Assembly (NCBI GenBank): GCA_001780275.1
Contig: MFGB01000007.1
Coordinates: forward strand, 66,280-130,279
Reading direction: 5' to 3'
Length of the DNA: 64,000 bases
Source of the DNA: Candidatus Falkowbacteria bacterium RIFOXYA2_FULL_47_19
GTDB lineage: Bacteria; Patescibacteriota; Patescibacteriia; Patescibacteriales; UBA12075
The notes beneath the pieces were generated by a model. It ran no database searches. It had not been told where the DNA came from and saw nothing but the letters and a program-made list of their open reading frames with translations. The translations under genes were made by a program, and so were the position numbers. This document shows, piece by piece, positions 1-57,379 of the stretch (positions are counted from its first letter, which is position 1; every line of letters begins with the position of its first letter).

Positions 1-552
1 GCGGTCATAAGTGGATAAAGCAATCCCGTCCGCGTCTTCATATTTGCAGACAGTAATCGATGAAGAGTTTATCTCGGCCTGGCGATTGCCGAAATGCAGA
101 CTGCTGATATTCTGTCCGGCCTGCAGATTAACCATGTGTTTCGTGGGGTCGTCCTGGTTCGGGTAAACTATATTATTAGGATAAGTCTCTGTCCAGCCGG
201 GTTTCTGGGTTTCGGCCACGATATAATGACCGGCCGCGAGGTTATCGAAAATATAGCAGCCGAAATCGTTGGTTATGGTCGTAGTGGAAACATCTCCGCT
301 CAAAACGATCTCCCAGCCCGGGAGGATATCCGCGGTGCTGGTGCCGGTTTCATCCCAGAAACCGTCGCCATCCGCGTCATTCCATTTACAGCCTGATATA
401 GAGCTTAAAGGCGGCTCTGCCGCCACCGCGCCCTCCGGAACGACAAAAAACACGCCCACGAACGACATGTTGAAGATAAGCGTGCTTAATAGAAAAACAT
501 TGAAGAATCCCCGGATTCTTCTGGTTTTCTTGCTGAGATTTGGGATCTGCAT
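1..552 (-). CDS. Secreted surface-repeat protein, N-terminal fragment (gene continues past window start)
   Basis: The minus-strand frame is open from ATG at 550-552 down to base 1. It is absent from the ORF track because it has no stop in the window. The N-terminus MQIPNLSKKTRRIRGFFNVFLLSTLIFNMSFVGVFFVVP is a basic region plus a hydrophobic span. It is followed by CKWNDADGDGFWDE..LPGWEIVL..GCYIFDNLAAGHYIVAETQKPGWTETYP, an SdrD-B/Cna-B-like module. Confidence 0.6.
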   Translation of the reverse strand, partial: MQIPNLSKKTRRIRGFFNVFLLSTLIFNMSFVGVFFVVPEGAVAAEPPLSSISGCKWNDADGDGFWDETGTSTADILPGWEIVLSGDVSTTTITNDFGCYIFDNLAAGHYIVAETQKPGWTETYPNNIVYPNQDDPTKHMVNLQAGQNISSLHFGNRQAEINSSSITVCKYEDADGIALSTYDR

Positions 553-733
553 AGATTTGATTGTAAATAAATAATAACCAGGTTATTATTTTGTTAGTTT
601 ATAATTATGAATAATAATTTATTATAGTTAGAGCTAATTAAATTATCATTATTATAAAGTTAAAACAGCATTAATAAGCAATAAAAAAACAGCCGAACTA
701 TCAGCTGCAATATTTTTTTTGACGGAGCGCGTT

Positions 734-1099
734 CTATGCTACGGTATCGTAATGTTCAATCCGACCATTCAAGTCGTCCAAAAGAGCTTTCAGGTACTGG
801 TACGGCTCTTCATGCGCGGGGAAAGACTGAATGATCGCCTTGATCTCGTTTCTGGTATCGGCGATAAATTTAAAATTAAAATAAAAATTGCTTGTTAAAA
901 GCGTTTGGCAAAGCACTTCAATGCCGAAGTTAATGCGCGCGCACGCCAACATGCTTTCTATCCCCTCGACCGATAGCCCGTCCACGCTCTCTACGTACTC
1001 TTTAACAAGTTTTTTTATCTGTTCGACCGCTGCCATGTGCGGCAAATAGGTTAGGCTCCACTTATCACCGCTATCCCCGCAAATAACATAACCGCCCAT
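734..1099 (-). CDS. Hypothetical protein (121 aa from internal ATG)
   Basis: This is track ORF 734..1141. The ATG at 1099 (MGGYVICGD...) is preceded by AGGAGG, so the upstream 14 codons look like a spurious extension. No family was recognised. Confidence 0.5.
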   Translation of the reverse strand: MGGYVICGDSGDKWSLTYLPHMAAVEQIKKLVKEYVESVDGLSVEGIESMLACARINFGIEVLCQTLLTSNFYFNFKFIADTRNEIKAIIQSFPAHEEPYQYLKALLDDLNGRIEHYDTVA

Positions 1100-1240
1100 C
1101 TTACGCCTCCTGTCAATTATTGTGATTACAAAGAACTTCAAAAAATGTCATCCTCGCGCGGACGGGAATTCCGGCTCGAAGAAAAGCCCGAATTTCCGCC
1201 CTCCGTAAAAATAGCATCCTTTATTAAAAATTAAAATACT

Positions 1241-4200
1241 CTATAAGTTATACGCCTTGCGCTTTATAAGCGCGCTTGCGCCGGTAAGTCCTCCGACCAT
1301 CATAATGAGGGCCATAAACTCGAAGACGCTGAATCCCGTTTCGGCCAACACTTCTATTTCCCGAACCTCAAGGTCGGCCATGGCCTCGAGCGGTTTATGG
1401 TTATCGGATCTTATCGTGGCGGTATTGACGTATATTTTTTCCGCGGCATCGTCGATGACGTTCGCGAAATAAGTGATTTCCCCGGTTTCGCCGGGTAGAA
1501 GGTCTCCGACCGCCCATTCCCGGGTGGTCGAAGCGGTATCGGCGTAAACGATCCCCTCGGGAAGAATATCCTTGATAATGACGTTAAAAGCGGTCAAATT
1601 GCCGGTATTGGCGTAATTGATCACATATTTGAAATTCTTATCCCCCGGATTATAGAACGATTTCTCGTCTGGAATGACCTTCGTGATAGAAAGTATCGGG
1701 TCCCCTTCTTCGCCTTTGACCTCGACGCAGGCGTCGGTCTTGTATTTGACGGTTTTCTCGGTCTTATCCGATCCTTCTTCGGCCTTGGCCGTAAAGGAGT
1801 ATTCGGTATAAGGCTTTAAGCCGCCGATCGTGGTCGAATGCAGGGTGCTTTCCGTGGTCGTGTCGGTCGAGGTGGCGTCTTTAATATCGTCGGAATCAAG
1901 GCCGTAAACGACCCAGCTGGTTACTGTCTTGTTAGTGCGCCACTCTATTTTAGCCGTATTCTCATCAATGCACTTAGCTTCTATTTCCATGATATCGAGG
2001 AAAACATGGCCTCCGCCGCCTCCGCCGCCGCCCGGCAGTTTGCAATACCGACAACCGTCCGTCTGATCGCTATTAGCATCATCGCACTCTTCGCCGGCAA
2101 CATTAATTATACCGTCGCCGCAGTACGGCCCGCCGCCGCCCTCGGTTGAGCAGGTGGCTGAGCAGCCGTCTCCGGAAACGTTATTGCCGTCATCGCATTG
2201 TTCTCCGGGGGTGTTCCCCAGTATTCTGTCGCCGCACCTGGGCCCTTCCTCGTAATAATTATTAAAATTATAATCAAGGCCATCTTTGCCGGTATACTCA
2301 AGCCAGACATCGAAATAAAGCGGGGTGGTGTTGTGCCAATTGGTCTTTAAGACCTCGTTCACGCGGTAAGCGGCGTCATAAGGGAGACCCTGGAAACAAT
2401 AACGCCCGGTGGAATCGGTCAAAACCGGCGCCGTTACCTTTTGCCAATCGGCGCGGCAATTAACGGCGAAAAGGCCGTCAAGGTCATAGCCGTTCCCATC
2501 CGCATTCTCGTCGTTGTCATCGCTCTCGTCAACTAATTTTATATATTTTGCCCAGACTAATGTGCCTAAATCCAGCGAAGTGTCCAATGTAGCAAGACCG
2601 AGTTCGCGCCAGGTGCCGTCAATTCCTGTCGGCGAGGCGTAAACGCGCGCTTTTTCCGAGGTCGGGGCTCCGTCCGGACTGGTTTCAAAAATTTCAATGT
2701 CAGCGCCGTTGCCGTTTATGACGATATTTTCAAGCTCCAGGATGATCTCGCCGCCAAAACCCAAAGAAACGTAATTCAGGGTTTGGTCCGCTTCAGCTTC
2801 TCCTAAAGCTTTAGCGCTATCGGTATAATCGCTTGCGAGCGGATCAGAGTTACTGTCGGTTCCCTGGGTATAATTTATTACCCGGTCCGCCCAGTTCTCT
2901 CCGGCCGCGCAATCCGCCGCGGTCGACAATTCAATGGTCCAATCCGGAAGACCCTTGGTGTTGGGCGTGGCCGCATTCTTATCCTCGTCCTCGTATTTAT
3001 AGCCGCAGATCATGCCGGAATCTCCGTAAGGCCGGTTATAGAAATAGAGCTCCGCGGTCTCGCCGGCTTTAACCTCTGTTGATGTGGCGCCGTTTTCCGG
3101 GCTTAAAATTATCCACCCCTTGGTCAAAGCTGCTTCAGCGGCGTTATAAATACCGATGGGCAGGTCGGAGAGAGTGACGCAGCCGATCTCGCCGGCCGTC
3201 CGCACGGTATGCGCGCTTTGGTCGGGGTATGTGACCGTAAAGGGCCAATCGGCGACCGGATACTGATCGTCGGCCGTATTCAAATCGCCGTCTGAATCCC
3301 CGATCTTGCAGATTTTCAAATTTCCAACCTCGTGCCGGTTAACAAAATCCTTATCGGTTTCGTTGGTATTCTGTGTTGTGATAAAAATAGTGTAATAATT
3401 ATCCGGATCGATCGGGCTTACCTGCGTCCAACCGCTCTGGTTTTGTTCATAGACGTCATACCGGCCGGTACAAAGATCGTTAAAGGCGTAATTGCCGTCG
3501 TTATCGGTCGTGGTGGTGGCGTAAACGATGCCAAGATTGTCGTTCCTGAGTTCAATTACCCATCCAGACAGGCCGTTACCGGTAAAATAATCTAACTTTC
3601 GTCCGCTTATTAAGGAAGTGCACTGCTCGATGGTTTTACATTCAGTTGAACAAGTAGCTGAACCGGTCGGGCCGTGGTCGCACTCTTCTCCCGGATCTGG
3701 GTTGTAATCGCCGCAGAAAGGCGCTTCGTAATTTAAAAAGACAAAAGGCTGCAGAGCGACTGATCCGAGCGTAAAGCTATATGATCCGTTGGCCGGATAA
3801 GTATTCCGCCAGTGTCCGCTTACCGGCGCTTCAGTAATAGTATAGTCGCCGTAAATAAGGTTATCTACGCTTACGCAGGCATTATCATTCGACGTGTTGA
3901 GGGTCTGCGAATAACTATCCGGTCCGGTAACCGTGAATTCCCAGGCTAAGGGCGTATCAACGCCGCTTTCGTAAGCGCCGATCACACCATTATCGTAGTA
4001 TTTGCATATCGTAAAACCGCCGCGCCGGGTGTTATAGAAATTAATCGTCGCGCCTTGGTCTTCATCGACTATAACCGTGCCTTCGCCGTTTTCCGGGTAA
4101 ACCGGACTCCAGCTCGGATTCGGCATAGTTTCGCTGACCGTGTATTGTTTAGGGTCGAGATCGGTGAAAACGGTACAACCGTTATCTCCGGTCGTCTGGG

Positions 4201-6142
4201 TAGTAGTATGGTCTAAAGTAAAGTTCCAGCCGGGCACTATCGTCTGGTCATCGATGGTTGAGGTTAAACCGTCCACGTCAAACCATTTGCAGACCGTGAG
4301 CCAGCCTTTTTTCGGCGGGATATACTTTAATTTGCAATCCGATTCGCAGGTCCAGTTGCCGGAGAGTCCGGTGGGCATAGCCGGCCAGTCGCATTCTTCG
4401 CCCTCTCCGCCCTGGATTATGCCGTCACCGCAATAAGGACCCCTTAAAGAAATCTCACTGCAGGTGCCGGAACAATAAGTGCAGGTGCTGTCATAATCAG
4501 GAACGCATGGCAGGCCGTTTTGGCCGCCCCGATCGCATACCTCGTTCAGGTCGTAGCCGTTCGGGGTCTGGATCGTGCTGTCTCCGCAATAGGTTAAAGC
4601 GCACTGGTCGGTACAGCCGTCGGTATTATCGCCGTCTTTGCCGTCATCGCAGGCTTCCAGTCCGTTTTGAACGCCGTCGCCGCAATACGGTCCGGTTAAA
4701 GTCGTCGGTTGGCAGGTACTGGAACAATAGGTGCAGGTACTGTTATAATCTGGATCGCAAGGTGTGCCGTTTGTTCCGCCTAAATCGCAAACTTCGTTTA
4801 ATCCATTACCATTAGGGGTCTGGATCGTGCTGTCGCCGCAATAGGTTAAGGTGCACTGGTCGGTACAGCCGTCGGTATTATCGCCGTTCTTGCCGTCATC
4901 GCATTGTTCGTCGCCATTCTTGATACCGTCGCCGCAAACGGGCGGGCACTCGACGGTCGTAGTGGCGGTCGCGCAGATCCAATTATCCGGGTTGCTCTTA
5001 CTGCCGAGCTGTTCGGCCCAAGCGCAGGCTTCGTTTACGATTTCGCTGCCGCAGGCCGTTTCAGTCTTAACTGTGGTCAATATATCAACCGTATAAGACT
5101 CGCCGGGGGCTAATACGTTCTTAACCCAGACGTTATTGCCTGAAGCCGGATTCGGCACGGAAGACACGAAAGAGGTCTTGGTATCATAAAATTCTTTAAG
5201 TTCCACACCGCTCCCCGTGCAGTTAGCCGTGCCGGTGTTGGTCAGGGTTAAATTATAAGTAAGATCGCCTCCCGGCGCGACCGGATCGGGGCTGTCGGTT
5301 TTTACGAGTTCAAGTTTGCATTCCCCCGGTCCGCCGCAGAATGTTATATGACTGATACTGTTAACGTCTTTTGTTACAGTTCCGCTTGTTCCGCCCGGAA
5401 ACTCGGTATAGGTCGTGGCCGCTTTTCTTAAAATCTTGTCTACGGCCGGATTTGAGGTCCAATCGGCTGACTCATTATTGCCGCTAACGGCAGTACTATA
5501 AGCTGGGTCATGTTTATCCATGGCTTCACTCCAAGCACCCGCGTATTCCCATTTAGCCACAGTAAAATAATTCGGTCCGAATTTATCTTCGCACTCGTCT
5601 TTGTCTTCTTGCTTCGTATTCGTAAAGGTGCAGGTTATCTGTGTATCATGAGAAATTTTTAATTTTACCTTACGTTCCGAAAGATATTTTGTGACAGTAA
5701 AATTACTGTTATTACCACTGCATACTATATCGCTTAAATTCCAGCCAGGAACATCCGCCTCGGTAATATAATAATCTCCGGTACTGGTAAAGGGCAGATC
5801 GACACTATTGCCGTCAATCAAGGAAAAATTACCGTTCCAGCCGGTTGTTCCGGTTTTATTTTTAGAAAAAGCAAAAGCCTGGGTGTCACCATCCGGCACA
5901 GTTTGTTTTATAACTGTTATCGTGCCGTGACAAGCCCAAGCCTCTCCGGGCGCAACCATAAAAATACCCCCTAAAGCCATGCCGAAAGACATGTTAAGCA
6001 CAAGGAGGCTCATGGAAAATACGTTGATCGCTTTGTAAATTTTACCTTTTCTGGTGTTTAAAAAATTAGGCGCGTAATGGAACGCGTAATTAGGAGCAAT
6101 CTGCCGGGATGAAAGCAGATTGGGAGAGTATGAATCATGCAT
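1241..6142 (-). CDS. Giant cell-surface protein with LAETG sortase sorting signal (1633 aa)
   Basis: The leader is ..AINVFSMSLLVLNMSFGMALGGIFMVAPGEAWA. The body carries several SdrD-B/Cna-B-like modules, Cys-rich CGDGxxxxxExCDDGxxxxDGC repeats, an FN3-like segment, a poly-Gly run and DUF11-like repeats (NTGNLTA). The C-terminus is LAETGF plus a hydrophobic span plus KRKAYNL. Confidence 0.88.
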   Translation of the reverse strand: MHDSYSPNLLSSRQIAPNYAFHYAPNFLNTRKGKIYKAINVFSMSLLVLNMSFGMALGGIFMVAPGEAWACHGTITVIKQTVPDGDTQAFAFSKNKTGTTGWNGNFSLIDGNSVDLPFTSTGDYYITEADVPGWNLSDIVCSGNNSNFTVTKYLSERKVKLKISHDTQITCTFTNTKQEDKDECEDKFGPNYFTVAKWEYAGAWSEAMDKHDPAYSTAVSGNNESADWTSNPAVDKILRKAATTYTEFPGGTSGTVTKDVNSISHITFCGGPGECKLELVKTDSPDPVAPGGDLTYNLTLTNTGTANCTGSGVELKEFYDTKTSFVSSVPNPASGNNVWVKNVLAPGESYTVDILTTVKTETACGSEIVNEACAWAEQLGSKSNPDNWICATATTTVECPPVCGDGIKNGDEQCDDGKNGDNTDGCTDQCTLTYCGDSTIQTPNGNGLNEVCDLGGTNGTPCDPDYNSTCTYCSSTCQPTTLTGPYCGDGVQNGLEACDDGKDGDNTDGCTDQCALTYCGDSTIQTPNGYDLNEVCDRGGQNGLPCVPDYDSTCTYCSGTCSEISLRGPYCGDGIIQGGEGEECDWPAMPTGLSGNWTCESDCKLKYIPPKKGWLTVCKWFDVDGLTSTIDDQTIVPGWNFTLDHTTTQTTGDNGCTVFTDLDPKQYTVSETMPNPSWSPVYPENGEGTVIVDEDQGATINFYNTRRGGFTICKYYDNGVIGAYESGVDTPLAWEFTVTGPDSYSQTLNTSNDNACVSVDNLIYGDYTITEAPVSGHWRNTYPANGSYSFTLGSVALQPFVFLNYEAPFCGDYNPDPGEECDHGPTGSATCSTECKTIEQCTSLISGRKLDYFTGNGLSGWVIELRNDNLGIVYATTTTDNDGNYAFNDLCTGRYDVYEQNQSGWTQVSPIDPDNYYTIFITTQNTNETDKDFVNRHEVGNLKICKIGDSDGDLNTADDQYPVADWPFTVTYPDQSAHTVRTAGEIGCVTLSDLPIGIYNAAEAALTKGWIILSPENGATSTEVKAGETAELYFYNRPYGDSGMICGYKYEDEDKNAATPNTKGLPDWTIELSTAADCAAGENWADRVINYTQGTDSNSDPLASDYTDSAKALGEAEADQTLNYVSLGFGGEIILELENIVINGNGADIEIFETSPDGAPTSEKARVYASPTGIDGTWRELGLATLDTSLDLGTLVWAKYIKLVDESDDNDENADGNGYDLDGLFAVNCRADWQKVTAPVLTDSTGRYCFQGLPYDAAYRVNEVLKTNWHNTTPLYFDVWLEYTGKDGLDYNFNNYYEEGPRCGDRILGNTPGEQCDDGNNVSGDGCSATCSTEGGGGPYCGDGIINVAGEECDDANSDQTDGCRYCKLPGGGGGGGGHVFLDIMEIEAKCIDENTAKIEWRTNKTVTSWVVYGLDSDDIKDATSTDTTTESTLHSTTIGGLKPYTEYSFTAKAEEGSDKTEKTVKYKTDACVEVKGEEGDPILSITKVIPDEKSFYNPGDKNFKYVINYANTGNLTAFNVIIKDILPEGIVYADTASTTREWAVGDLLPGETGEITYFANVIDDAAEKIYVNTATIRSDNHKPLEAMADLEVREIEVLAETGFSVFEFMALIMMVGGLTGASALIKRKAYNL
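4433..4936 (-). repeat. Tandem 2 x 252-bp (84-aa) Cys-rich module duplication inside the 1633-aa gene
   Basis: CGDGIKNG.. starts at aa 403, CGDGVQNG.. at aa 487 and CGDGIIQG at aa 571. At DNA level gatcgtgctgtc recurs at 4571 and 4823, exactly 252 bp apart, with long near-identical runs. Confidence 0.85.
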
Positions 6143-6302
6143 AAGAAACGTCAGGCATATAATTTAAAAATAAATTATGCCTATATGAATAATTAATTAA
6201 AATGATTCTCTAGCTTAGCATTATTATCTCTATTTTGTCAATAGTAAAATTAAAAATTATTAAAATTTGATATTATTCTAACATTAAATAAATTAACAAC
6301 AT

Positions 6303-6338
6303 AAAAAAAACAGGCTATTTTTTAGCCTGTCATGTTTT
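6303..6338 (-). terminator. Rho-independent terminator
   Basis: Stem acaggct / agcctgt (6310-6316 / 6324-6330) is flanked by an A-run and a T-run. On the minus strand it is followed by TTTTTTTT, downstream of the small ORF at 6397..6564. Confidence 0.6.
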
Positions 6339-6396
6339 TTGGGGAAAGGGTTAATAAACTCTTTAATTTATCCGAATGTTTTTGGATGATCTTTTT

Positions 6397-6564
6397 TTAT
6401 TTTGTTGATATGGCAAGCATGCATATGCCAACCGTCAGCAGGAAATAACCCAAGTCTTCGAATTTTTTAAGTTTTGGCCAGACGCCTATACCGAATCCCG
6501 GCAGAATGAACGATATTCCTATCCAATGGCAAAGACCGAGTTGTTTAAAAAACAAAAGGCCCAT
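6397..6564 (-). CDS. Small hydrophobic protein (55 aa), not in ORF track (<60 aa)
   Basis: ATG at 6562-6564 is preceded by GGAGGG. The translation is MGLLFFKQLGLCHWIGISFILPGFGIGVWPKLKKFEDLGYFLLTVGICMLAISTK, which has two hydrophobic spans. It has its own terminator at 6303-6338. Confidence 0.4.
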   Translation of the reverse strand: MGLLFFKQLGLCHWIGISFILPGFGIGVWPKLKKFEDLGYFLLTVGICMLAISTK

Positions 6565-6673
6565 ATACCCTCCTTCTTTATATTTTACATGAAGTCCGCA
6601 GCTTATATTTACTTATACGCTTAAAAAGGGATTCTATTACACTAAAAATTAAAAAAATAAATACTTCCTGTTC

Positions 6674-6702
6674 GTAGAGACGCCCCGCCGGGGCGTCTCT
6701 AC
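6674..6702. repeat. 29-nt palindromic element, copy 1 (GTAGAGACGCCCCGCCGGGGCGTCTCTAC)
   Basis: It is a perfect palindrome and one of four copies in the window. It is followed by cgaggcggtgcatgggatagag, which resembles the flank of copy 2. Confidence 0.85.
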
Positions 6703-6734
6703 GAGGCGGTGCATGGGATAGAGGTAAAAAAATT

Positions 6735-6770
6735 AAAAAACCCGATAGTTTGATCGGGTATTTTTTGGTT
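6735..6770 (-). terminator. Rho-independent terminator after 6782..7432
   Basis: Stem cccgat / atcggg (6741-6746 / 6753-6758) has an A-run and a T-run on either side. Confidence 0.65.
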
Positions 6771-6781
6771 CTTTTTTGAGG

Positions 6782-7432
6782 TTATTTTTTGGGAATATGT
6801 TTCTTAAGCTCTTGCAGTTGCTCAGGGGTAAGGTCTTTTATCCCCTCTCGGATGGTGTCAGTATCCTGTTTAGCTTCCTGTTTTTCCCTTTCCTGGACGT
6901 TCTTGGCGCGCACTTCTTTCTGTGCGCCAGTTTGAGTCAGGGGCAGTGACAGGTTCTCAAAGGCGTGCATCGGCACGACATCGCGGTCTGAGTCGTAATA
7001 CTCTATCACTACCCGGTCGCCCGCTTGGGTCAAGGGTAATTTCACCGAAAGTTCGCCAGCCCCGCCCGTAAAGATGTGCGGCACCTCTTTCAGATGGAGA
7101 TAGTAGGTCGTGCCGGAATTCAGCGCCTCTTGATTACGCCGGTCCACCACGCCCTCTATCTTTTTGAGGACGCGCTCCTTGTCCAGAACGACCTGCTGAC
7201 CGCCCCGCATGATAAGTTTTTCGTATTCGCGCAAGGCTTCGTATTGGTCGTTGCCGACCGCTACGGTCTGGATATTATTGATGGAAACTATTGCCACCCC
7301 TTGAAAGGCGTGGCTTTCGTTTAAAAGCGGTACTACACTGGCCATCGTCCCATAGACGTTATAAAGCTGGGGATCAACGCCGTGGAGCTTTTTATACTCG
7401 ACATGGCTGTTCTTGTTGACCGCATCCAGCAC
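6782..7432 (-). CDS. Hypothetical protein, probably the C-terminal part of the gene at 7475..8614
   Basis: This 216-aa ORF has only a GTG start and no convincing SD. It is in the same frame as 7475..8614, and the 14 codons between them contain no stop other than the TAA at 7475-7477. Confidence 0.5.
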   Translation of the reverse strand: MLDAVNKNSHVEYKKLHGVDPQLYNVYGTMASVVPLLNESHAFQGVAIVSINNIQTVAVGNDQYEALREYEKLIMRGGQQVVLDKERVLKKIEGVVDRRNQEALNSGTTYYLHLKEVPHIFTGGAGELSVKLPLTQAGDRVVIEYYDSDRDVVPMHAFENLSLPLTQTGAQKEVRAKNVQEREKQEAKQDTDTIREGIKDLTPEQLQELKKHIPKK

Positions 7433-7474
7433 GGCGGCATCGGTAGAACCGCCCCTGACCGTATAACGGACGGA

Positions 7475-8614
7475 TTAGCCGGTCCGGGAATTGGTGTACA
7501 CGACGGCGATCAGGGAGTCGTCTTTACTGCTCTGTGAGGTTATACCCGTCACCCAATCCGCTTGTCCCTCCGATCCGTAGATCAGGTTCGGCGTTTCCGG
7601 CTGGGTAATACCCCTCCCTCCCCACCAGGTATTCTTCCAGCCGTGGACATATTTACCGCTCCAGGTCAGATAGTTTTCAATGAAAGACCGCGGCACGGCC
7701 CGGTCCACCCAATCGGGAATTTTGTCTTGGGGAAAAAATTCCGGGTCGCCGCTTGCCGGATCAACGATTACTACTCCGGTAATCTTTTCTCCGCTCCACA
7801 TGATCGTGGGCTTATAAGCGGTAACGACCCACCAGGCCTTGCCATTTTCGTCTATTTCAAAAGTGTAGTCAACCAGGCCGGTGTTTAAAAAACCGCTGTT
7901 GCGCAAATGCCTTTCCAACTCGTTCCAGAAGAAGGCGCCCGGCGTATACTGCATTTTTTCTTTATCCGGGAGCATCTTGAGGACTGCTGGACGATGCGGA
8001 TCTTCGCCGTGGACCATGATATAGCCCGGAACGCCGTCGGTAGAGGTCCAGACGGAAATTCCGCCGTAATCCAGGGGCACGACATACCACAGCTCGTTAT
8101 TGATCCTCTGGAGCGTCATAAGGCCCTCGGAAATCTGAAATTGGCTGCCGACAGCGCCGGCCTCGCCCAGGACTTTTTTCGCGAGATAAACCGCGTTTTC
8201 GGTCGTGGACATCCGCATATGTTTCGGGTCTTTGGGCTGGACATCCTGGGTCCAGACCCTTTCTTCCATCGTCCCGATCATATTCTTGTAGTCGCTGGCG
8301 CGGAACATTCCGCTGCCCAAAGTACAGCTGCCCATATAGATAAGCGCCGTGAAAATAGGAAAAAACGCGACGTAGGTAAATTTACCCTCTAAGATCGCGT
8401 CAATTATTGCAGCCGCTATCCAAAGCAGAAAAACCATGAATCCCGGAATTCCGCCCAGCGGATACACCGTTGAGGGGGTTGATAAGTAAAGAATTCCCCA
8501 AACCAGCCATAATGAAATTACCCCCGTATAAATGGCGGCTTTTACTTTTTTGTTGACGAGCAAAGGAAGTACTCCCAGAACCGTGCAGATAATGGCGGCT
8601 ATAAATACGTACAT
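7475..8614 (-). CDS. Polytopic membrane protein with extracytoplasmic domain (379 aa), possibly truncated by an in-frame TAA
   Basis: The N-terminus has about 4 hydrophobic spans (MYVFIAAIICTVLGVLPLLV.., ISLWLVWGILYL.., FMVFLLWIAAAIIDAIL.., FFPIFTALIYMG). A large soluble domain follows. No family was recognised. Confidence 0.75.
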   Translation of the reverse strand: MYVFIAAIICTVLGVLPLLVNKKVKAAIYTGVISLWLVWGILYLSTPSTVYPLGGIPGFMVFLLWIAAAIIDAILEGKFTYVAFFPIFTALIYMGSCTLGSGMFRASDYKNMIGTMEERVWTQDVQPKDPKHMRMSTTENAVYLAKKVLGEAGAVGSQFQISEGLMTLQRINNELWYVVPLDYGGISVWTSTDGVPGYIMVHGEDPHRPAVLKMLPDKEKMQYTPGAFFWNELERHLRNSGFLNTGLVDYTFEIDENGKAWWVVTAYKPTIMWSGEKITGVVIVDPASGDPEFFPQDKIPDWVDRAVPRSFIENYLTWSGKYVHGWKNTWWGGRGITQPETPNLIYGSEGQADWVTGITSQSSKDDSLIAVVYTNSRTG

Positions 8615-8829
8615 TCTAATCTCCTTTCTTTGGTTTACTTGGTTGGCAAGCTATAAAATGATTGTCCCCCGAATAATCCTCCCTTCTTTTTTTCTATTAT
8701 TAGAAAAATAAGCTTGTCTATTTTAATTGGGTTATCAATGATCTAATAAACTATTATTTCACATTTTGAAGATTTTGTCAAGATTTTATCACGAATTTCC
8801 TCCACCCCTAAACCCCGCAGACGCCCACG

Positions 8830-8858
8830 GTAGAGACGTTGCATTGCAACGTCTCTAC
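8830..8858. repeat. 29-nt palindromic element, copy 2 (GTAGAGACGTTGCATTGCAACGTCTCTAC)
   Basis: It has the same outer arms, GTAGAGACG/CGTCTCTAC, as copies 1, 3 and 4. The inner part differs but is still self-complementary. Confidence 0.8.
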
Positions 8859-8887
8859 GAAACGGGGCATGTGGGAAAAGATTAAAC

Positions 8888-8921
8888 AAAACCCCGCCCG
8901 GCAAATGCCGGGCGGGGTTTT
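8888..8921 (-). terminator. Rho-independent terminator after 8940..12716
   Basis: An 11-bp stem ccccgcccggc / gccgggcgggg has an aaat loop. On the minus strand it is followed by TTTTGTTT. Confidence 0.8.
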
Positions 8922-8939
8922 AAGTATCTAAACCACTGT

Positions 8940-11900
8940 TTACGCTTTTACATCTCCGAATTTAAGGCCCTTGGCCATACCGAATAAACCGAGAACGGCC
9001 AGGATAAGGGTTAAAAGTTCACTCAGATCAAAGCCGGTTTCAGCCAGGACAGCGACGGCCGTCACTTCTAAATCGGCGGTAGCTGTCACGTCAGCGGCGC
9101 TATTATCGGCTTTCACGGTGGCCGTATTGGCATAAGTTTTAGCCGCGGCCTCATTATTGACGTTCACGGTATAGGACATTTCCTTCTTTTCCCCGGCAGC
9201 CATATCGCCGATCGTCCAGGTGCGGGTTAATTCCTCCATATCGGCAAAAACTAAACCGGCTTCAAGCGTATCGGTCAAAACCACGTTGGCGGCGATGACG
9301 TTACCGGTATTGGTAACGGTCAGGGTATATTTGACGCCGGTATCGCCCGGATTAGCTTTTTCGCGATCAACGGTTTTGGCAAGGGTCAGGATAACTTCAC
9401 TCGCTTCGCCTAATACCGATACCGAGATCGGTTCCGGATTCTCGACCGGGGCCGAACCGGCTTCTCCGGTCTTGTATTCCACCTGCTTGCCGATTTTCTC
9501 CGGCGAAGCGGATGATACCGGCCGGAAATAATAGGTCGTATTCGGAGTTAATCCGGTGATCGTTACCGAATGTCCGGTCACGTGTTCTTCGTCTAATTCA
9601 GTTGACCACTGGTAGCCGTAATTCGGGGCCGATTCCCCGGATACGTCCGGATGGCTGACCGTATCGTAAAGCACGCGTGAAGTGCCCGGTTTGTTGGTAA
9701 GCCAGGTAATAGTAATATAATCTCCGCTCAGTTCATTGGCTCTTTCGTTATAAAGCGTAAGCTCGGAGGGCAACCAGCCGCTCCCGCCCGTTTGCTCTTC
9801 CTTGGCGTATTCACAGCTCTGGTCATTGTTAGTGGCGTTCGGATTATAATTAGTGGCGGAAGAATCAGTACAGCCGTAAACCGGTTCATAATGATTCAGG
9901 AAATAAACTTCAGCATAATCATCCTCGCCGCTAATTTCAACGATTATGGCGTTACCGTCCTGATTATAGCAGGTATTATTACTGCCGACCCCGGTCTGAG
10001 TCCAGCCGGCTTGTGAATCTTCGATAATAGTGTAAGTACCGTAAGGTACAATAAAATCAACACAGCCGTAATTTTCACTGTTTTCTCCCTCAGTCGCGCC
10101 GCTATCTTCATGCTCATTATCGCCGCTGATATTCATGGTCCAGCCGGCAAGCGGATGCAGTATCTGTTGCATAGTGGCCAAGGCTTCTTTGATCTTTACT
10201 GCGTTCCATATTTTATCGACGAAAGATACGTCCTGTGGCGGCGTATATTCCGAATAATCCGGGTAGCCGTCGCCATCCGTATCCTCGTATTTGCAGACCT
10301 GGATCGTGCCTGTATAGGTCGGACAAGTGTCCATATTACAATCCTGGCTGCCGGTCGGTTTATCGCCGTCGCAATATTCGTCATCAATGGTAGCGCCGCT
10401 ATCATCACGGCACTCTACGGTCCGATCCTGAGTGCCGCCGCCGCAATCGGCGCTGCAATCTCCCCATTCGCTCATATACCAGGCATAAGTCGGTTCCGGT
10501 TCAGGGCATTCAGTCAATTCTACCTGGACATCGTCAAGCAAGGTGCCATAAGAATCCGACGTGCCTAAATCGGTAAATTCCAGGTCCGTAGAATCACTGT
10601 CGGCAGTCATAGTATATTCATATTCGGTCCAGGCGGTATCGGTATTATCAGAACCATCGGCGCTTACCGTTTCGTCGATAGAGCCGAATTTTATACCTAA
10701 GCTGTTATTTGCTGAATCTGTCTCAGGGCGCGGCGAAAATTTAAAGGTAAGTTTATAAGTCGCACCGGGAATAGTGGTAATGTTTTGAGAGATAACTACC
10801 GAAGCCGCTTCGTTGCCTTCAGCCGGATAATCAGTATCAAGCTCGGCCCATTGACTGCCTTCGCCCGCGGTCCAGCCTAAACCGGTAGTTTGCAGTTCTA
10901 AATTAGCCATTTCCGGCGCGCCTTCGTCCGGATTAACCCAGGAAACGGCCCAACCTAAACCTTCTGTGCCGGAGGGATAGACCTGCCACTTGCCGTCATG
11001 TTCGGTAACGGTCGGTGTTTCAAAATCGCCATTCATTATTTTAATAGCGCCGGTTTCGCAAGCCGGAGTCTGGCAAACGGTTTCATTGGCGCAATCACTA
11101 TCGTCGCAATCTACGTCACCGTCTCCGTCATTGTCAACGCCATCAACGCAATCATCTTCTATCGGCTCTTCGCAAGCATCGCCCGCGCTGTTCCCGTAAC
11201 TATTTTCCTGGGAGGGATTAGAGATAGTCGGACAATTGTCGCAAACATTACCCACTCCATCCACGTCAGAATCTTCCTGGCCCGAGTTAGCGACCGAAGG
11301 GCAATTATCGCAGGCATCGCCTTTGCTGTCCCCGTCAACATTAACTTGGTCCGGATTGGCAGTACTGGGGCAATTATCCTGACTGTCGCAAACGCTGTCT
11401 TCATCCGCATCCGGACAAGCGCAAACCGAATCGGAGCCGTCGCAATCCTGATCCATGCCGTCGTCGCAAACTTCCTCGGCTCCGGGATTAACGGAACCGT
11501 CATCATCATCGCAGTCGTCGCCGCCGCATGCTAAATTAAGATAACCGTCGCCATCTAAATCCAGATTATCGGTTATGCCATCGCAATCATTATCTACCCC
11601 ATCGCCGCAAACCTCCGCGCCCGTAGCAGTGCATTCATCGCAAACGTCGCCCTGTCCGTCTTGATCGCTGTCGGCCTGGTCTGTGTTGAAAACCATAGAA
11701 CAATTGTCGCAGGCATCGCCCAAGCCGTCGTCGTCGCTATCAAGCTGGTCGGCATTGGCGGTTGAGGGGCAATTGTCCGCACAATTTGCATCTCCGTCCC
11801 CGTCAGCATCAAAACCTTCGTCAATCGCGCCGTCGCAATTATTGTCAATACCGTCGCAAACTTCCTTGGCCCCGGGATAAACAGAACCATCGTCATCGTC

Positions 11901-12716
11901 GCAATCACCGCTACAATCGCTATATCCGTCACTGTCATTATCCGGCTCATCAACGGTTTCGCTATTACAATCGTCATTAATGCCATTGCAGGTTGTTTCC
12001 ATGGCCCCCGGATTGATTGCCGGATTATTATCGTCGCAATCCGCGCCATTCGTGCAATTCTGGCCATAACCATCGCCGTCATCATCAATGCAAACCGGGG
12101 CTGGCGTATAATAAACTTTTACGCGCACCTGGTCTACATACAAAATACCGCCATTATTATTACCGTTAGCATCAAGAAAAATTCTAAACTTATTATCACT
12201 AAAATCACCTAATGACCAGGTTCTGCCCCATTTATCTGTCGCGCCCCCAAGAGGACTAACGTTGTCAGAATATGGATGCGAGGAATCTTTGTGTACGTTG
12301 GTTGTTTTACCAGACGTAACATGCGAACCACCATCCCAAGATATCTTAACGTCAGCCTGTCTTGTGTTAGAGGTGTATCCCTCTACTTGAACTTCAATGC
12401 CGTTTATTGTGGCTCCGGCCGGAATGGAAAAACCAAAATTTTTATAAAAAATCTTGTCATTAGAGGAATCAGCTGATGCCCGATGATTATCAGAGGAATA
12501 TACGTATGTCGGGTTTACCCAACCGCCACCAGTATTGCCCTCATTTCCCGTAGGCGCTTTAAATCCGCTATCCGCCGCCTCTACCGTCGGCGCGACAAAA
12601 AACACGCCCATTAACGACATGTTGAAAATTAACACCGATAAGCTGAAAACGCTTAAAAGCTTATAACCGCCCTTTTTGATGCGCTCCAGGCGATAAAAGC
12701 CCATTTTTTTATGCAT
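8940..12716 (-). CDS. Giant cell-surface protein with LAETG sorting signal (1258 aa)
   Basis: The leader is KLLSVFSLSVLIFNMSLMGVFFVAPTVEAA. The body has Cys/Asp-rich CDDxDxxxxPGAxExCDGxDxDCDG motifs, thrombospondin type-3-like DxDxDGxGDxCDNC repeats and a DUF642/choice-of-anchor-C-like region (NGDFETP..GWAVSW). It also has one TSP1-like repeat, an FN3-like segment and a DUF11-like repeat. The C-terminus is LAETGF plus a hydrophobic tail. Confidence 0.88.
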   Translation of the reverse strand: MHKKMGFYRLERIKKGGYKLLSVFSLSVLIFNMSLMGVFFVAPTVEAADSGFKAPTGNEGNTGGGWVNPTYVYSSDNHRASADSSNDKIFYKNFGFSIPAGATINGIEVQVEGYTSNTRQADVKISWDGGSHVTSGKTTNVHKDSSHPYSDNVSPLGGATDKWGRTWSLGDFSDNKFRIFLDANGNNNGGILYVDQVRVKVYYTPAPVCIDDDGDGYGQNCTNGADCDDNNPAINPGAMETTCNGINDDCNSETVDEPDNDSDGYSDCSGDCDDDDGSVYPGAKEVCDGIDNNCDGAIDEGFDADGDGDANCADNCPSTANADQLDSDDDGLGDACDNCSMVFNTDQADSDQDGQGDVCDECTATGAEVCGDGVDNDCDGITDNLDLDGDGYLNLACGGDDCDDDDGSVNPGAEEVCDDGMDQDCDGSDSVCACPDADEDSVCDSQDNCPSTANPDQVNVDGDSKGDACDNCPSVANSGQEDSDVDGVGNVCDNCPTISNPSQENSYGNSAGDACEEPIEDDCVDGVDNDGDGDVDCDDSDCANETVCQTPACETGAIKIMNGDFETPTVTEHDGKWQVYPSGTEGLGWAVSWVNPDEGAPEMANLELQTTGLGWTAGEGSQWAELDTDYPAEGNEAASVVISQNITTIPGATYKLTFKFSPRPETDSANNSLGIKFGSIDETVSADGSDNTDTAWTEYEYTMTADSDSTDLEFTDLGTSDSYGTLLDDVQVELTECPEPEPTYAWYMSEWGDCSADCGGGTQDRTVECRDDSGATIDDEYCDGDKPTGSQDCNMDTCPTYTGTIQVCKYEDTDGDGYPDYSEYTPPQDVSFVDKIWNAVKIKEALATMQQILHPLAGWTMNISGDNEHEDSGATEGENSENYGCVDFIVPYGTYTIIEDSQAGWTQTGVGSNNTCYNQDGNAIIVEISGEDDYAEVYFLNHYEPVYGCTDSSATNYNPNATNNDQSCEYAKEEQTGGSGWLPSELTLYNERANELSGDYITITWLTNKPGTSRVLYDTVSHPDVSGESAPNYGYQWSTELDEEHVTGHSVTITGLTPNTTYYFRPVSSASPEKIGKQVEYKTGEAGSAPVENPEPISVSVLGEASEVILTLAKTVDREKANPGDTGVKYTLTVTNTGNVIAANVVLTDTLEAGLVFADMEELTRTWTIGDMAAGEKKEMSYTVNVNNEAAAKTYANTATVKADNSAADVTATADLEVTAVAVLAETGFDLSELLTLILAVLGLFGMAKGLKFGDVKA

Positions 12717-13037
12717 ATTTTTCTATATCCCGCCCCGAAATTCATAAAAATATGAACTATGGACGGAAATTATTTATAAAAAATTTTAACGAATAAATAA
12801 AAAACAGCCCCTCGTGCTTTCATCGTAGGACAATCAAGGCTTAATCCTATTATTACATATTTTTAAAAATCAAGCAATATTCAAGTAACTTTAATCAGAC
12901 AAGAAAAGCCCTGTTGGGCTTTTCGCAGTCCGCCTCGGGCGTGATCGGTTATTAGCTCGCCACACTCAACAAACCTTAGTTATAAAAATCACAAAATATT
13001 GAAATTCCTTTACGATAAAAAGCCGATATTTATTATC

Positions 13038-14666
13038 TTAATTCGCGGCTTTTTTCCGAAGTATTGCCGCCGAACCCGCCAAAACCAGCATTACGCCCAA
13101 TAGCACGATAAATTCAACATTATCAAAGCCGGTTTCCGGCAATTTAACGGGTGCCGGCGCTTCCCCGCCCATAGGCGCTCCGACCGTACTTCCTTTAACT
13201 TCAATAGCTAAGGTAGCCATGACCGGATTATGGTTAGAGGCGTATACCACGGCCGTATTCGCGTAAGTTCCGGGTAAAGCCACCGCGCCAACGTCTACCA
13301 GATATTTTATGACCTTGACCTCCCCGGGAAGAATATCGCCCAAGCTCCAGGTTTTGACCGGCTCGCCCGTGTCGGCGTGCACGAGGCCGCCGTAAAGGGT
13401 ATCGGCTAAAGTAACCGCATAGGCGGCTAAATTACCCTGGTTGACGACCGTGATCGTATATTCGATGCTGCCGCCGCCGATATTGGCCGTAGTCCGGTCA
13501 GCGGTTTTTTCTATGGTTAATTCCGGATTTCCGGCCTCTCCTAAAACCTCGGTTTCTTCCGTAGCTGCCGGCAGTGTTTCCGGGACCGTTACCGGAGCCG
13601 CCGGCTTAATTTCTCCGACAACAATATCGGCCGTAGCCGTGACCGGAGAATGATTCGCGGCAAAGGCCTGCGCCACGTTAGTATAGATTCCGGGCGTGGC
13701 CGAAGTCGCGATATCGACAAGGTAGGTAATATTCTTTATCGTTCCCGGTTCTATGTCTCCCAGAAACCATTCTTTGGACGTGTCGTCGGTGCCGTCGAAA
13801 ACGAGCCCTGCGGGCAGATTATCGACCACGTTCACGGCATAAGCCGTCAGATTCCCGTTATTCGCGACCACGATCTTAAATATTTTTTCGCTGATCAAAT
13901 CCGAATTGTTGGCATTCTGGTTGAGTATTACCTTCCCGATCGATAAATTAGGCGTGCCGGCCTCGCCCAAGACCACGGTCTCCGCGTCTCCGCCCAAGGG
14001 CGCGAGGGCCGGCGTCGAGGTGCCTGGTTCGAGACTGCAGGAAATCGTACAATGGTAGCCCGCCTGTACGCCAAGGTCGCCGTCGCAGGCCTCGAAATAC
14101 TCCGTAATGCCGTTGCCGCAATAAAAAGACTCTTCCTCGAATATTCCTTCGTAATTGGCGAAATCAACTTCTACCGCTTCTCCCGCTTTAAGGCCGATAT
14201 TATAATCCACCCCCTTGGGCACAGTCTGGGTCCAGCCCTCTTTTTTTATCTCTTTTAAGCGATATTTCCCTTCCGATAAACCGGAAAAGGAGAAACAGCC
14301 GTTAATATCCGTGGTTGTGGCCGCGTAAACCGAACAAACATCATTCACATTGAACGCGAACTCCCCTGTTTCGCTAATATTACCGCAATTTTCCAAAACA
14401 ATCTCCCAGCCAGGCAATTTTTCCCAGGTTTTTTCAACTTTGCCCGTGCCGCTTATATCGCGGTAACTGCAGCCGGAAACAGAACTTAAGACCGGAACGG
14501 AACTCGTGGCCTCCGTGCTGGTCGCTTCGGCGGATACGGCCTTAACGCCCAGAAAAAAAATGCCGGAGGTAAGAAGAAATAATATTATCAGGCTGAATTT
14601 AATACTTTTGGCCGTTTTAAACATAAAAATAAGGCTTATTTTGAATAAAAAAAACCCGCGTAGCAT
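13038..14666 (-). CDS. Cell-surface protein with LPETG sorting signal (542 aa; alternative ATG at 14624)
   Basis: It has a signal-like N-terminus (..FSLIILFLLTSGIFFLGVKAVSAEA) and an SdrD-B-like module (GWEIVLENCG..GKYRLKEIKKEGWTQT). One Cys-rich repeat and two DUF11-like repeats follow. The C-terminus is KLPETGF plus a hydrophobic span plus RKKAAN. Confidence 0.85.
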   Translation of the reverse strand: MLRGFFLFKISLIFMFKTAKSIKFSLIILFLLTSGIFFLGVKAVSAEATSTEATSSVPVLSSVSGCSYRDISGTGKVEKTWEKLPGWEIVLENCGNISETGEFAFNVNDVCSVYAATTTDINGCFSFSGLSEGKYRLKEIKKEGWTQTVPKGVDYNIGLKAGEAVEVDFANYEGIFEEESFYCGNGITEYFEACDGDLGVQAGYHCTISCSLEPGTSTPALAPLGGDAETVVLGEAGTPNLSIGKVILNQNANNSDLISEKIFKIVVANNGNLTAYAVNVVDNLPAGLVFDGTDDTSKEWFLGDIEPGTIKNITYLVDIATSATPGIYTNVAQAFAANHSPVTATADIVVGEIKPAAPVTVPETLPAATEETEVLGEAGNPELTIEKTADRTTANIGGGSIEYTITVVNQGNLAAYAVTLADTLYGGLVHADTGEPVKTWSLGDILPGEVKVIKYLVDVGAVALPGTYANTAVVYASNHNPVMATLAIEVKGSTVGAPMGGEAPAPVKLPETGFDNVEFIVLLGVMLVLAGSAAILRKKAAN

Positions 14667-14859
14667 TTTAGCCGGCAGGGCGCGGTTTTTATCTGAAAGA
14701 TTTTTTTGAAATAAGCTAGAATTCTCATAACATTAGATTGGTTTTCTCCTTGTTTGATTAAAATCACATTAACACAGTCGAAAAAATAAGTCAATATCCG
14801 AAAATACAAAAAAACGCTTGAGAGATCAAGCGTTTTTAAGTTATTTTAAACGAAAATAT

Positions 14860-21527: not shown

Positions 21528-21562
21528 TTTTAAGTTACGAGAAAAAAAATTCTAATAATATC

Positions 21563-22003
21563 GGGGCAAGCTATAAGCCGGATTCTGTATCCGCCGAATC
21601 GGCGGACGATGGCCATTTATCTAGGATCGTTGTTACCAACGACCTCATGCGAACCACTTATCTTCACCCCGAATTCTCGGAATGAGTTTGTTCTTGCTCC
21701 AGGCAGGGTTTACCGCGCATTCCGCTCGCGCGGAAGCGAAGCTTGTAGCCTTTTGACTCGAGGACAAAAGACACCAAGCGACTTTTCACTCTTCCCCCGA
21801 GGAAAGCAAAGCTTTCTTTTCGGGGTAGTATGGTCTCTGTGGCACTTTCCCTAAGGTTTCCCTCGGTCGCCGTTAGCGACTGCCGTTTTGAATTTCAGAT
21901 ACGCCGTCTTCGAAAATCGAAAATCGGCAATCGTCAATCCAAAGAGTCCGGACTTTCCTCTCTGCTTAACTAAAGCTAAGAAGAGCGGCCATCCGCTTAC
22001 CAC
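21563..22003 (-). ncRNA. rnpB: RNase P RNA, bacterial type A
   Basis: The minus strand contains GAGAGGAAAGUCCGGAC (P4 5' strand), GUGCCACAGAGACCA, GGUAAACCCUGCCUGGAGCAAGAACAAA, CUAGAUAAAUGGCCAUCG and ACAGAAUCCGGCUUAU (P4 3' strand). P1 forms as GGUAAGC/GCUUGCC. A P8-like hairpin GUCGC-UAAC-GGCGAC is present. The ends are approximate. Confidence 0.88.
21911..21938. repeat. Heptamer array (CGNNAAT family, 4 units) inside rnpB
   Basis: The array reads cgaaaat cgaaaat cggcaat cgtcaat. This is the same unit family as at 19867 and 26454. Confidence 0.85.
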
Positions 22004-22049
22004 GATATTACTAGAATTTAATGTTCTTGATTTATAGCAACTCTAATTT

Positions 22050-57189: not shown

Positions 57190-57379
57190 AATTTTCTCAT
57201 AGGGTAACGCATAAGGTAACGCGCTACGACAAATATTTAGAAATTTATTAAAACAAAAAATCCGTGCCACAGCCACAGATTTCACGAGTAAAAAACAAAA
57301 AATTTTTCTTGTTTTATGCCTCGGCAGGTCTTATGGCGCTTATGCCGCCTGCTGTCTGTGGCGCTTGATTGTTATAGTT

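Follow-up and report, generated by a model that had tools for sequence, protein, structure and literature searches.

A candidate island of sortase-anchored fibrillar adhesins in a Candidatus Falkowbacteria bacterium

Gram-positive bacteria display fibrillar adhesins of the LPXTG type, such as MSCRAMM proteins, SdrD and Cna, in which a signal peptide is followed by a distal binding region, then by a stalk of isopeptide domains of the CnaB/SdrD_B and CnaA types, and finally by an LPXTG-like motif, a transmembrane (TM) segment and a basic tail, and which have a sortase gene nearby. Here, we analysed a 64,000-nucleotide stretch of DNA (the window) from a Candidatus Falkowbacteria bacterium, a member of the Candidate Phyla Radiation (CPR)/Patescibacteria, whose positions 1-14666 encode proteins that are alike in these respects. 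We consider it probable that this region is most of a surface-protein island of ~23 kb encoding sortase-anchored fibrillar adhesins, a reading of the Gram-positive type to which the signal peptides, sorting signals, isopeptide-type stalks and candidate heads of the proteins lead.

Sortases have been noted before in CPR genomes (PMC7143001), and the domain formerly called DUF11 now bears the name CLIPPER; it is CnaA-like, and a Lys-Asn isopeptide bond within the domain confers thermal and protease resistance (PMC12617251). All cultivated Patescibacteria are obligate episymbionts (PMC11623550). Type IV pili have been implicated in partner recognition and attachment for a small number of Saccharibacteria in culture, beyond which little is known for the ultrasmall CPR/Patescibacteria (PMC11623550). 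The locus offers a concrete, testable alternative to type IV pili for partner recognition in an uncultivated groundwater lineage, as it supplies four predicted sortase substrates and a sortase, candidate heads, and two genes whose centres are wholly different between close relatives.

Surface-protein genes, sorting signals and sortase

Open reading frame (ORF) calls together with Pfam and NCBIfam matches define four surface-protein genes, all on the minus strand: complete genes for proteins of 542 (or 528) amino acids (aa; 13038..14666), 1258 aa (8940..12716) and 1633 aa (1241..6142), and the 5' part (184 codons; 1..552) of a gene for an 878-aa protein, which covers the signal peptide and the first SdrD_B/SpaA unit and runs off position 1. 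A sequence-only reading of this DNA had described four co-oriented surface proteins, one of them partial, and these ORFs are exactly as it gave them. Its figure of 22% of the window is that of the span 1-14666, whereas the four genes themselves amount to 10,860 nt, or 17%; the span also contains a 135-aa ORF, a 55-aa ORF and the ORFs of a membrane protein. Likewise, the adhesin genes of the island that it proposed are real, but other genes are interspersed among them and ~8.3 kb of the island lies past the window edge.

All four N-termini read as Sec-type signal peptides with a basic n-region, a hydrophobic core and an AxA-like site. The core ...VFS.S.LIFNMS..GVFFV.P is shared by the 878-aa, 1258-aa and 1633-aa proteins and their orthologues, and the signal-peptide DNA of the 878-aa (420-477) and 1258-aa (12572-12629) genes is 81% identical; by analogy with YSIRK, this may be a lineage-specific type of signal peptide for sortase substrates. 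At the other end of the proteins, a six-frame scan found exactly three L[PA]xTG signals with a hydrophobic and a basic stretch in the 64 kb, one at the C-terminal end of each complete protein. LAETG is the motif of the 1633-aa protein (LAETGFSVFEFMALIMMVGGLTGASALIKRKAYNL; 1241..1348, minus strand) and the 1258-aa protein (LAETGFDLSELLTLILAVLGLFGMAKGLKFGDVKA; 8940..9047, minus strand), and LPETG in the 542-aa protein (13038-13142, minus strand) and the 878-aa protein. The LPXTG_anchor model TIGR01167 is passed by the 542-aa protein only (18.1 bits, cut-off 15.9), the UniRef label of which is already that of an LPxTG-domain protein.

No sortase is encoded within the window, as judged by Pfam searches of all sizeable ORFs and by the lack of a TLxTC motif in an ORF. 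ENA contigs L005 and L006, from the same population, are 100% identical to window positions 1-16142 and extend past position 1, where the order of genes is that for the 878-aa protein, a secreted 388-aa protein, a 237-aa protein, a 1039-aa protein, a 225-aa sortase and a NUDIX gene. The sortase gene lies ~7.6 kb past the window edge, and its end, with which the island closes, ~8.3 kb past. The 225-aa protein matches PF04203 with 84.5 bits (cut-off 26.6) and TIGR01076 with 65 bits (cut-off 39.35), and it has an N-terminal TM helix and the motifs ITGHR, TMFTC and QRLVV, with the catalytic His, Cys and Arg. NCBI records an identical sortase for three assemblies of this Falkowbacteria population. 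Two of them, RIFOXYB2_FULL_47_14 (locus tags A2303) and an assembly with A2227 tags, have names that also stand on the 542-aa and 1633-aa proteins, and the organism is named as Candidatus Falkowbacteria bacterium RIFOXYB2_FULL_47_14 / RIFOXYA2_FULL_47_19; in one NCBI assembly, the sortase (OGF27558), the 1633-aa protein (OGF27564) and the 542-aa protein (OGF27568) fall in one contiguous series of accessions. The sorting signals, and a sortase gene that closes the island in assemblies of 100% identity, thus bear out the description of the proteins as sortase-type, and the lack of a sortase in the genome, which had been named as grounds for giving up that description, is not what the same-population assemblies hold.

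Orthologous sortases are found in 26 loci of Falkowbacteria, Parcubacteria and other Patescibacteria. At 12 of the 26, the gene directly upstream ends with L[AP]x[TSA]G-F, a TM segment and a basic tail, and one more such gene stands further upstream; LAETG is the commonest sorting motif beside these sortases. This arrangement supports the pairing of enzyme and substrate. Furthermore, the window contains genes for a penicillin-binding protein transpeptidase, a Mur ligase, MraZ/MraW, YceG and BacA, which makes a peptidoglycan wall to anchor to plausible.

The sortase scores below the cut-offs of the NCBIfam models for four sortase classes, at 64.8 bits for class C (cut-off 160), 61.9 for class D (165), 59.2 for class E (160) and 24.2 for class F (166). 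These values bear on the idea that the proteins are pilin subunits, polymerised by a class C sortase into covalent pili as are SpaA and RrgB. SpaA-type isopeptide domains are present in the island, the 878-aa protein weakly matches the SpaH/EbpB major-pilin model (38.7 bits, cut-off 95), and class C enzymes are among the top matches of the sortase in a sequence search of the PDB. Against this, no island protein has a YPK[NQ] (YPKN-type) motif, an absence that argues against sortase-built pili, only one sortase is seen in the island, and the proteins, at 542-1633 aa and with many modules, are unlike typical pilins. Given the missing pilin motif and a class C score far below the cut-off, we rejected sortase-built pili, which appear highly improbable.

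Stalks, cysteine-rich repeats and candidate binding modules

The modules of the four proteins were scored in bits with Pfam and NCBIfam hidden Markov models (HMMs) against curated cut-offs. From its N-terminus, the 1633-aa protein is made up of a signal peptide, a SpaA_4 unit (42 bits), an unassigned segment, a CLIPPER_2 domain, cysteine-rich DUF4215 units, a SpaA/SdrD_B array, a domain that we call SLGFGGE, two DUF4215 repeats, an FN3-like unit, a CLIPPER domain (1400..1693, minus strand, with its Lys-Asp-Asn triad kept) and the LAETG signal. SpaA scores 68.1 bits (cut-off 23.1), SdrD_B 45.6 (29.7), DUF11 65.8 (24.6), DUF7507 44.5, DUF4215 56.9 (27) and TIGR02232, the Myxococcus-type cysteine-rich acidic repeat, 67.6 (20.8); residues 178-278 match nothing significant in Pfam. 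The CnaB-type SpaA/SdrD_B array occupies 2909..4306 (minus strand) and includes one interspersed cysteine-rich repeat. Two tandem 84-aa cysteine-rich units, at 4421-4672 and 4673-4924 (minus strand), make up the internal 252-bp duplication that the sequence-only reading had pointed out, with copies that are 77% identical in DNA and in protein. In the sequence, the SLGFGGE domain (approximately residues 1079-1224; 2471..2908, minus strand) looks like an insertion into a SpaA unit; the secreted 388-aa protein outside the window also has this domain, at 32% identity. The domain has no Pfam match, and a three-sequence profile of it found nothing in the PDB; the 388-aa paralogue gives a sub-threshold F5/8 type C hint in Pfam (E 0.0085), and a single-sequence AlphaFold model, with a pLDDT of 42, was unusable.

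In the 1258-aa protein, the signal peptide is followed by a jelly-roll head (residues 45-207; 12096..12584), cysteine- and aspartate-rich Cu-binding_MopE, TSP3 and acidic-disulfide repeats (residues ~208-550; 11067..12095), a DUF642, or choice-of-anchor C, domain (residues 560-732; 10521..11039), a thrombospondin type-1 (TSP1) repeat (TSR; residues 746-798; 10323..10481), a SpaA unit, an FN3-like unit, a CLIPPER domain and the LAETG signal, all on the minus strand. Cu-binding_MopE scores 71.6 bits (cut-off 27), TSP1_ADAMTS 45.2 (23.8), DUF11 59.2 (24.6) and Pur_ac_phosph_N, an FN3-fold family, 34.8 (30); TSP_3, at 25.0 bits, is borderline, exactly on its cut-off of 25, and DUF642 passes in Pfam (35.5, cut-off 27), with the NCBIfam model TIGR04362 at 66.8 bits (cut-off 120). 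The SpaA and FN3-like units are separated by a short motif with two cysteines, YGCTDSSATNYNPNATNNDQSCEY (residues ~950-973; window ~9800-9870), which is kept in both orthologues of the protein and has no library match. The 542-aa protein consists of a signal peptide, a SpaA unit (26.9 bits), a cysteine-rich repeat below threshold (17.5 bits for TIGR02232, cut-off 20.8), two CLIPPER domains (DUF11, 80.4 bits) and the LPETG signal, and the full 878-aa protein, as read from the identical contig L005, of a signal peptide, five SpaA-type units, an FN3-like unit, a CLIPPER domain and LPETG with a TM segment and RRK. Of the modules named from sequence alone, SpaA/SdrD_B, DUF11, DUF4215, MopE/TSP3 and TSP1 are thus recovered by HMM, as is DUF642 by its Pfam model, whereas the fn3 model stays sub-threshold in both large proteins (20.8 and 16.6 bits, cut-off 25), as does the cysteine-rich repeat of the 542-aa protein. 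The two large proteins contain 47 (1258-aa) and 61 cysteines, and their acidic residues make up 15-19%.

Next to the wall, all four proteins have the same succession of FN3-like unit, CLIPPER domain and sorting signal, a cassette that is 31-38% identical among the paralogues. The CLIPPER domains of the island (PF01345) score 59-84 bits, and a profile of eight of them matches the CLIPPER structure PDB 9IFR (E 3.4e-5), in an alignment that places the isopeptide Lys on K715 and the catalytic Asp on D748; a single CLIPPER domain as the query found no PDB relative. The K-D-N triad is kept in six of the eight domains. The best PDB match of the profile (E 6.4e-9) is 9flp, which is GhpA, the 'grappling hook' protein of predatory Aureispira, where the CLIPPER-type domain sits in a prey-catching appendage. 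A further CLIPPER protein is encoded outside the island, at 27466-29583 (minus strand); it has 705 aa with DUF11 and DUF7619, lacks a signal peptide within residues 1-70 and does not end in an LPXTG-like motif.

The sequence-only reading had spoken of eukaryote-like extracellular matrix (ECM) modules, a description that we find to be mostly an effect of Pfam naming. The MopE/TSP3 region matches >6,000 proteins, and the named ones among the matches listed are nearly all bacterial, mainly from Myxococcota/Deltaproteobacteria; the NCBI models for DUF4215/TIGR02232 and for choice-of-anchor C are bacterial ones. The TSP1 repeat is the one module typical of eukaryotes: reviews regard its domain as characteristic of animals and apicomplexans (PMC3417536), and the TSR of the 1258-aa protein aligns with those of human thrombospondin-1 (E 1.6e-7), with the Trp pair, the Arg and the cysteines within the HMMER alignment in register. 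Queried by itself, this repeat gave two candidates in a protein search, neither of which scored, and 66 pattern matches in a scan of metagenome contigs, with no relative among them. The two closest orthologues of the protein have SpaA repeats in place of the TSR. The occurrence of a TSR in a CPR bacterium is a side result of possible wider use.

That the proteins are mimics of the extracellular matrix, acquired from eukaryotes and serving attachment to a eukaryotic host, would be in keeping with this genuine TSP1 repeat and with the eukaryote-derived names of TSP3 and DUF642. However, the bacterial relatives of the MopE/TSP3 region speak against such an origin, as does a TSR that is single and missing from the two closest orthologues. 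Moreover, neither an EGF repeat nor the thrombospondin C-terminal (L-lectin-like) domain was matched in the 1258-aa protein, which is hence not a thrombospondin, and the cultivated Patescibacteria attach to bacteria (PMC11623550). We regard eukaryotic mimicry as a very improbable explanation; any host would most likely be another microbe and not a eukaryote.

A phage-related head and divergence between relatives

The head of the 1258-aa protein, which forms its mature N-terminus, is a beta jelly roll with a fold like that of carbohydrate-binding modules (CBMs). It has no match in Pfam, NCBIfam or PHROG, and PHROGs is also without a family for its phage homologues. We collected 47 homologues, nearly all of them proteins of 145-305 aa, and an AlphaFold model built from the homologue alignment reached a pLDDT of 92.6. 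Compared with the PDB, this model resembles jelly-roll modules of CBM32, 36, 8, 22 and 61 (TM-score 0.41-0.56), and predicted viral structures in BFVD, a Methanobacterium virus tail protein included, fit it much better (0.66-0.75); sequence identity to the phage-protein domains is 29-44%.

The domain occurs in ORF39 (1310 aa) of Methanobacterium virus PhiF1, two genes downstream of a baseplate-J gene, and a podovirus 'tail tubular protein A' begins with it. The homologue P0282 adjoins an SU10-type adaptor gene on a contig that also has a diversity-generating retroelement, ERF and an endolysin-like gene. A relative of the head is encoded on 92 IMG/VR viral contigs, found with an 11-sequence alignment, and in 52 of 71 complete IMG/VR ORFs the domain starts <=15 aa from the N-terminus. 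In the 1258-aa protein, it starts directly after the predicted signal-peptide cleavage site (VEA|ADSGFKAP, compared with MADTGFKSP in phage). On these sequence and structure matches, the tip of the 1258-aa adhesin belongs to an undescribed family of jelly-roll domains associated with phage virions, a second side result of possible wider use.

The locus is syntenic, from glycosyltransferases to sortase, with that of another member of Falkowbacteria (GCA_043801965.1). At the amino-acid level, the flanking genes are 92-96% identical (83% for one glycosyltransferase of the GT4 type), the sortase 92%, the 542-aa protein 93%, the 878-aa protein 88% and the 388-aa protein 80%. The 1258-aa gene, by comparison, is mosaic: its product is 81% identical in the signal peptide, 63% in the middle and 74% at the C-terminus, and in the relative the head is swapped for an unrelated segment and the TSR for SpaA repeats. 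The alternative head (orthologue P0003) gave nothing significant in Pfam. The counterpart of the 1633-aa protein has 1200 aa, and the two are near-identical at their ends (92.5% over the C-terminal 330 aa) and almost unalignable in their centres, where the relative has at least eight cysteine-rich units and one SpaA unit and the 1633-aa protein has its two 84-aa units, further cysteine-rich repeats, the SpaA array and the SLGFGGE domain. The 84-aa units are 77% identical to each other and only ~50% to those of the relative, which places the duplication, or a homogenisation of the copies, after the split of the lineages.

Module shuffling, for which a comparison across related genomes had been suggested, is thus evident, but only between species-level relatives. 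To call the recombination active, as had been proposed, is an overstatement, given duplicate copies that are 77% identical and five assemblies of the population that are 99.99-100% identical, with at most one base difference over 16 kb; the latter give no sign of ongoing shuffling akin to phase variation.

This divergence bears on what the proteins might bind. They could be sortase-anchored and yet serve as a general coat, bind environmental polymers (sediment polysaccharides, biofilm matrix or minerals) or scavenge glycans, a use that we hold to be unlikely. It would suit an organism known from aquifer sediment and groundwater metagenomes, and candidate modules that resemble carbohydrate-binding modules, which bind many polysaccharides; in addition, the proteins are very acidic and rich in cysteine (19% Asp+Glu and 47 cysteines in the 1258-aa protein), a composition that would suit matrix proteins binding calcium or metal, and metal binding is also the annotation of the MopE motif. 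However, heads that are replaced outright between close relatives with flanks at 92-96% are typical of partner-specific recognition under diversifying selection, and the family of the head is used on phage tails, which recognise cell surfaces.

We also advance, tentatively and as a rather doubtful extension of the adhesin reading, the idea that the island is the determinant of partner recognition, or host range, of a CPR episymbiont, with cassettes replaced between conserved 5' (signal peptide) and 3' (FN3-CLIPPER-LAETG) ends and with at least one module, the jelly-roll head, exchanged with phage tail or receptor-binding proteins. If this were true, one pool of binding domains would serve both episymbionts and phages directed at the same cell surfaces.

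The remaining genes of the region lie among the adhesin genes or beyond them. A 135-aa ORF (734..1141, minus strand; 121 aa in public gene calls) is without a signal peptide and without a family match in Pfam or NCBIfam, and is 86% identical in the relative. A 55-aa ORF (6397..6564, minus strand), hydrophobic by reading, is also called at the same place in the relative, where it alone separates a 1362-aa from a 1200-aa gene. The window also has a 2.2-kb block (6650-8884) with no counterpart in the locus of the relative, a difference that is an insertion or a deletion. The block contains, with its flanks, a gene for a ~610-aa conserved membrane protein (6782..8614, minus strand) that is split into ORFs of 379 and 216 aa by one in-frame TAA at 7475-7477 (...YTNSRTG*SVRYTVRGG...), present in all five assemblies. 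The family consists of multi-pass membrane proteins and is represented by a model in neither Pfam nor NCBIfam; it has 1157 homologues, typically of 600-620 aa and with K, Q, E or D at the position of the stop, to which both halves are ~45-50% identical. The TAA may have arisen recently as a nonsense mutation, may be read through or may mark a functional split. We had considered the two ORFs as an adhesin-specific accessory and rejected this, as they are one interrupted gene of a widespread family, and this gene is absent from the syntenic locus of the relative; it is probably not part of the adhesin system.

The window matches NCBI contig MFGK01000017.1 (GCA_001778255.1) except for a run of N in that record, a scaffold gap at window positions 6973-7130 that is 25 nt shorter than the real sequence in the window and the ENA contigs; owing to this run, the 216-aa ORF is missing from the genes called on the NCBI record. 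Beyond position 1, the 388-aa and 1039-aa proteins (L005 18395-19561 and 20578-23697) have in common Gly/Asn-rich repeats (..N..TGGN.I..G.GG.I.TGDA..), in the N-terminal half of the larger protein in the second case, that are matched by no library; this N-terminal half gives nothing significant in Pfam. The 1039-aa protein has three CLIPPER domains, and 17 nt separate the end of its gene from that of the sortase. Within the window but outside the island, a 1626-aa ORF (46375-51255, minus strand) with a Lys-rich N-terminus and repeated '...IREVP...' motifs towards its C-terminus has no Pfam or NCBIfam match, no signal peptide and no sorting signal, and lies in a stretch of strongly negative GC and AT skew (48-50 kb). 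The bacterial RNase P class A RNA (175 bits; 21558-22004, minus strand) and a ribosomal L10 leader (62.5 bits; 57245-57379, minus strand) are present, and no tRNA genes were found in the 64 kb.

Proposed mechanism and comparison with known systems

Our model predicts that the 542-, 1258-, 1633- and 878-aa proteins are exported via Sec by their related signal peptides and held in the membrane by the C-terminal sorting signal of L(A/P)ETG, hydrophobic and basic stretches. Next, the membrane sortase whose gene closes the island would cut after the Thr and join it covalently to peptidoglycan. The stalks, of CnaB-type SpaA/SdrD_B and CnaA-type CLIPPER domains, are probably stiffened by intramolecular isopeptide bonds and also contain disulfide- and calcium-type repeats (DUF4215, MopE and TSP3). 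Distal to these, the jelly-roll head, DUF642, the TSP1 repeat and the SLGFGGE domain are candidate binding modules, some of them lectin-like, which would most likely bind glycans or surface polymers of a partner cell or substrate. By analogy with the episymbiotic life of the cultivated Patescibacteria (PMC11623550), attachment to a host may reasonably be inferred as their role.

Several observations weigh against this account of sortase-anchored adhesins. Terminator-like hairpins follow several island genes, for example a strong one with a 16-bp stem and a T run directly 3' of the 1258-aa gene (8887..8922, minus strand), suggesting that the island is a set of separate transcription units; the genes look like units with their own terminator-like sites and not like one operon. 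As the sortase fits no defined class, it is gene linkage that points to its specificity for LAETG and LPETG. The 1039-aa protein, although encoded directly upstream of the sortase, has a TM tail without an LPXTG-like motif. Finally, the matches of the modelled head fold to carbohydrate-binding modules are modest.

The architecture is the classical Gram-positive one and as such already known. Given this, the existing UniRef LPxTG label and the earlier CPR sortases, the value of the locus is that of a well-delimited candidate and not of a new principle. What is most original in it is the phage-like head, together with the mosaic divergence.

Compared with the MSCRAMM proteins, the island belongs to CPR/Patescibacteria, two of its four proteins carry LAETG, its stalks add cysteine-rich DUF4215, MopE and TSP3 repeats that are typical of Myxococcota surface proteins, and its heads are jelly-roll, DUF642 and TSR modules and not DEv-IgG (N2N3) domains. 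Class E sortases of Actinobacteria, for example Streptomyces SrtE1, prefer LAXTG. The sortase of the island is similar to these in the Ala at position 2 of the motif and as a single membrane-anchored enzyme of the housekeeping type, and it matches the SrtE1 structure (PDB 5CUW) with an E of 1e-6; by the class E model it is nevertheless not a class E enzyme, as the C and D models score equally. The acidic cysteine-rich repeats are the same as those in MopE-related/TSP3 proteins of Myxococcota (the MtsC family, NF047638), and the 1258-aa protein matches the MtsC model with an E of 1.3e-21; it falls short of the equivalog cut-off (77 bits, cut-off 350) and is anchored by LAETG, not MYXO-CTERM.

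The CLIPPER adhesin B9T28_05395 of Acinetobacter silvestris (9IFR; PMC12617251) likewise has a CnaA-like CLIPPER stalk, with which the island domains share the aligned Lys and Asp and the Asn motif. It differs in that its CLIPPER units form a long tandem array, where the island proteins have one or two units next to the anchor, and in that it is anchored by an OmpA-like domain and not by a sortase. Lastly, the N-terminal jelly rolls of phage virions (PhiF1 ORF39, 'tail tubular protein A' and small phage proteins) are homologous to the head of the 1258-aa protein and hold the same extreme N-terminal place in the mature chain, whereas in the island this domain is fused to the sortase-anchored stalk of a cellular protein.

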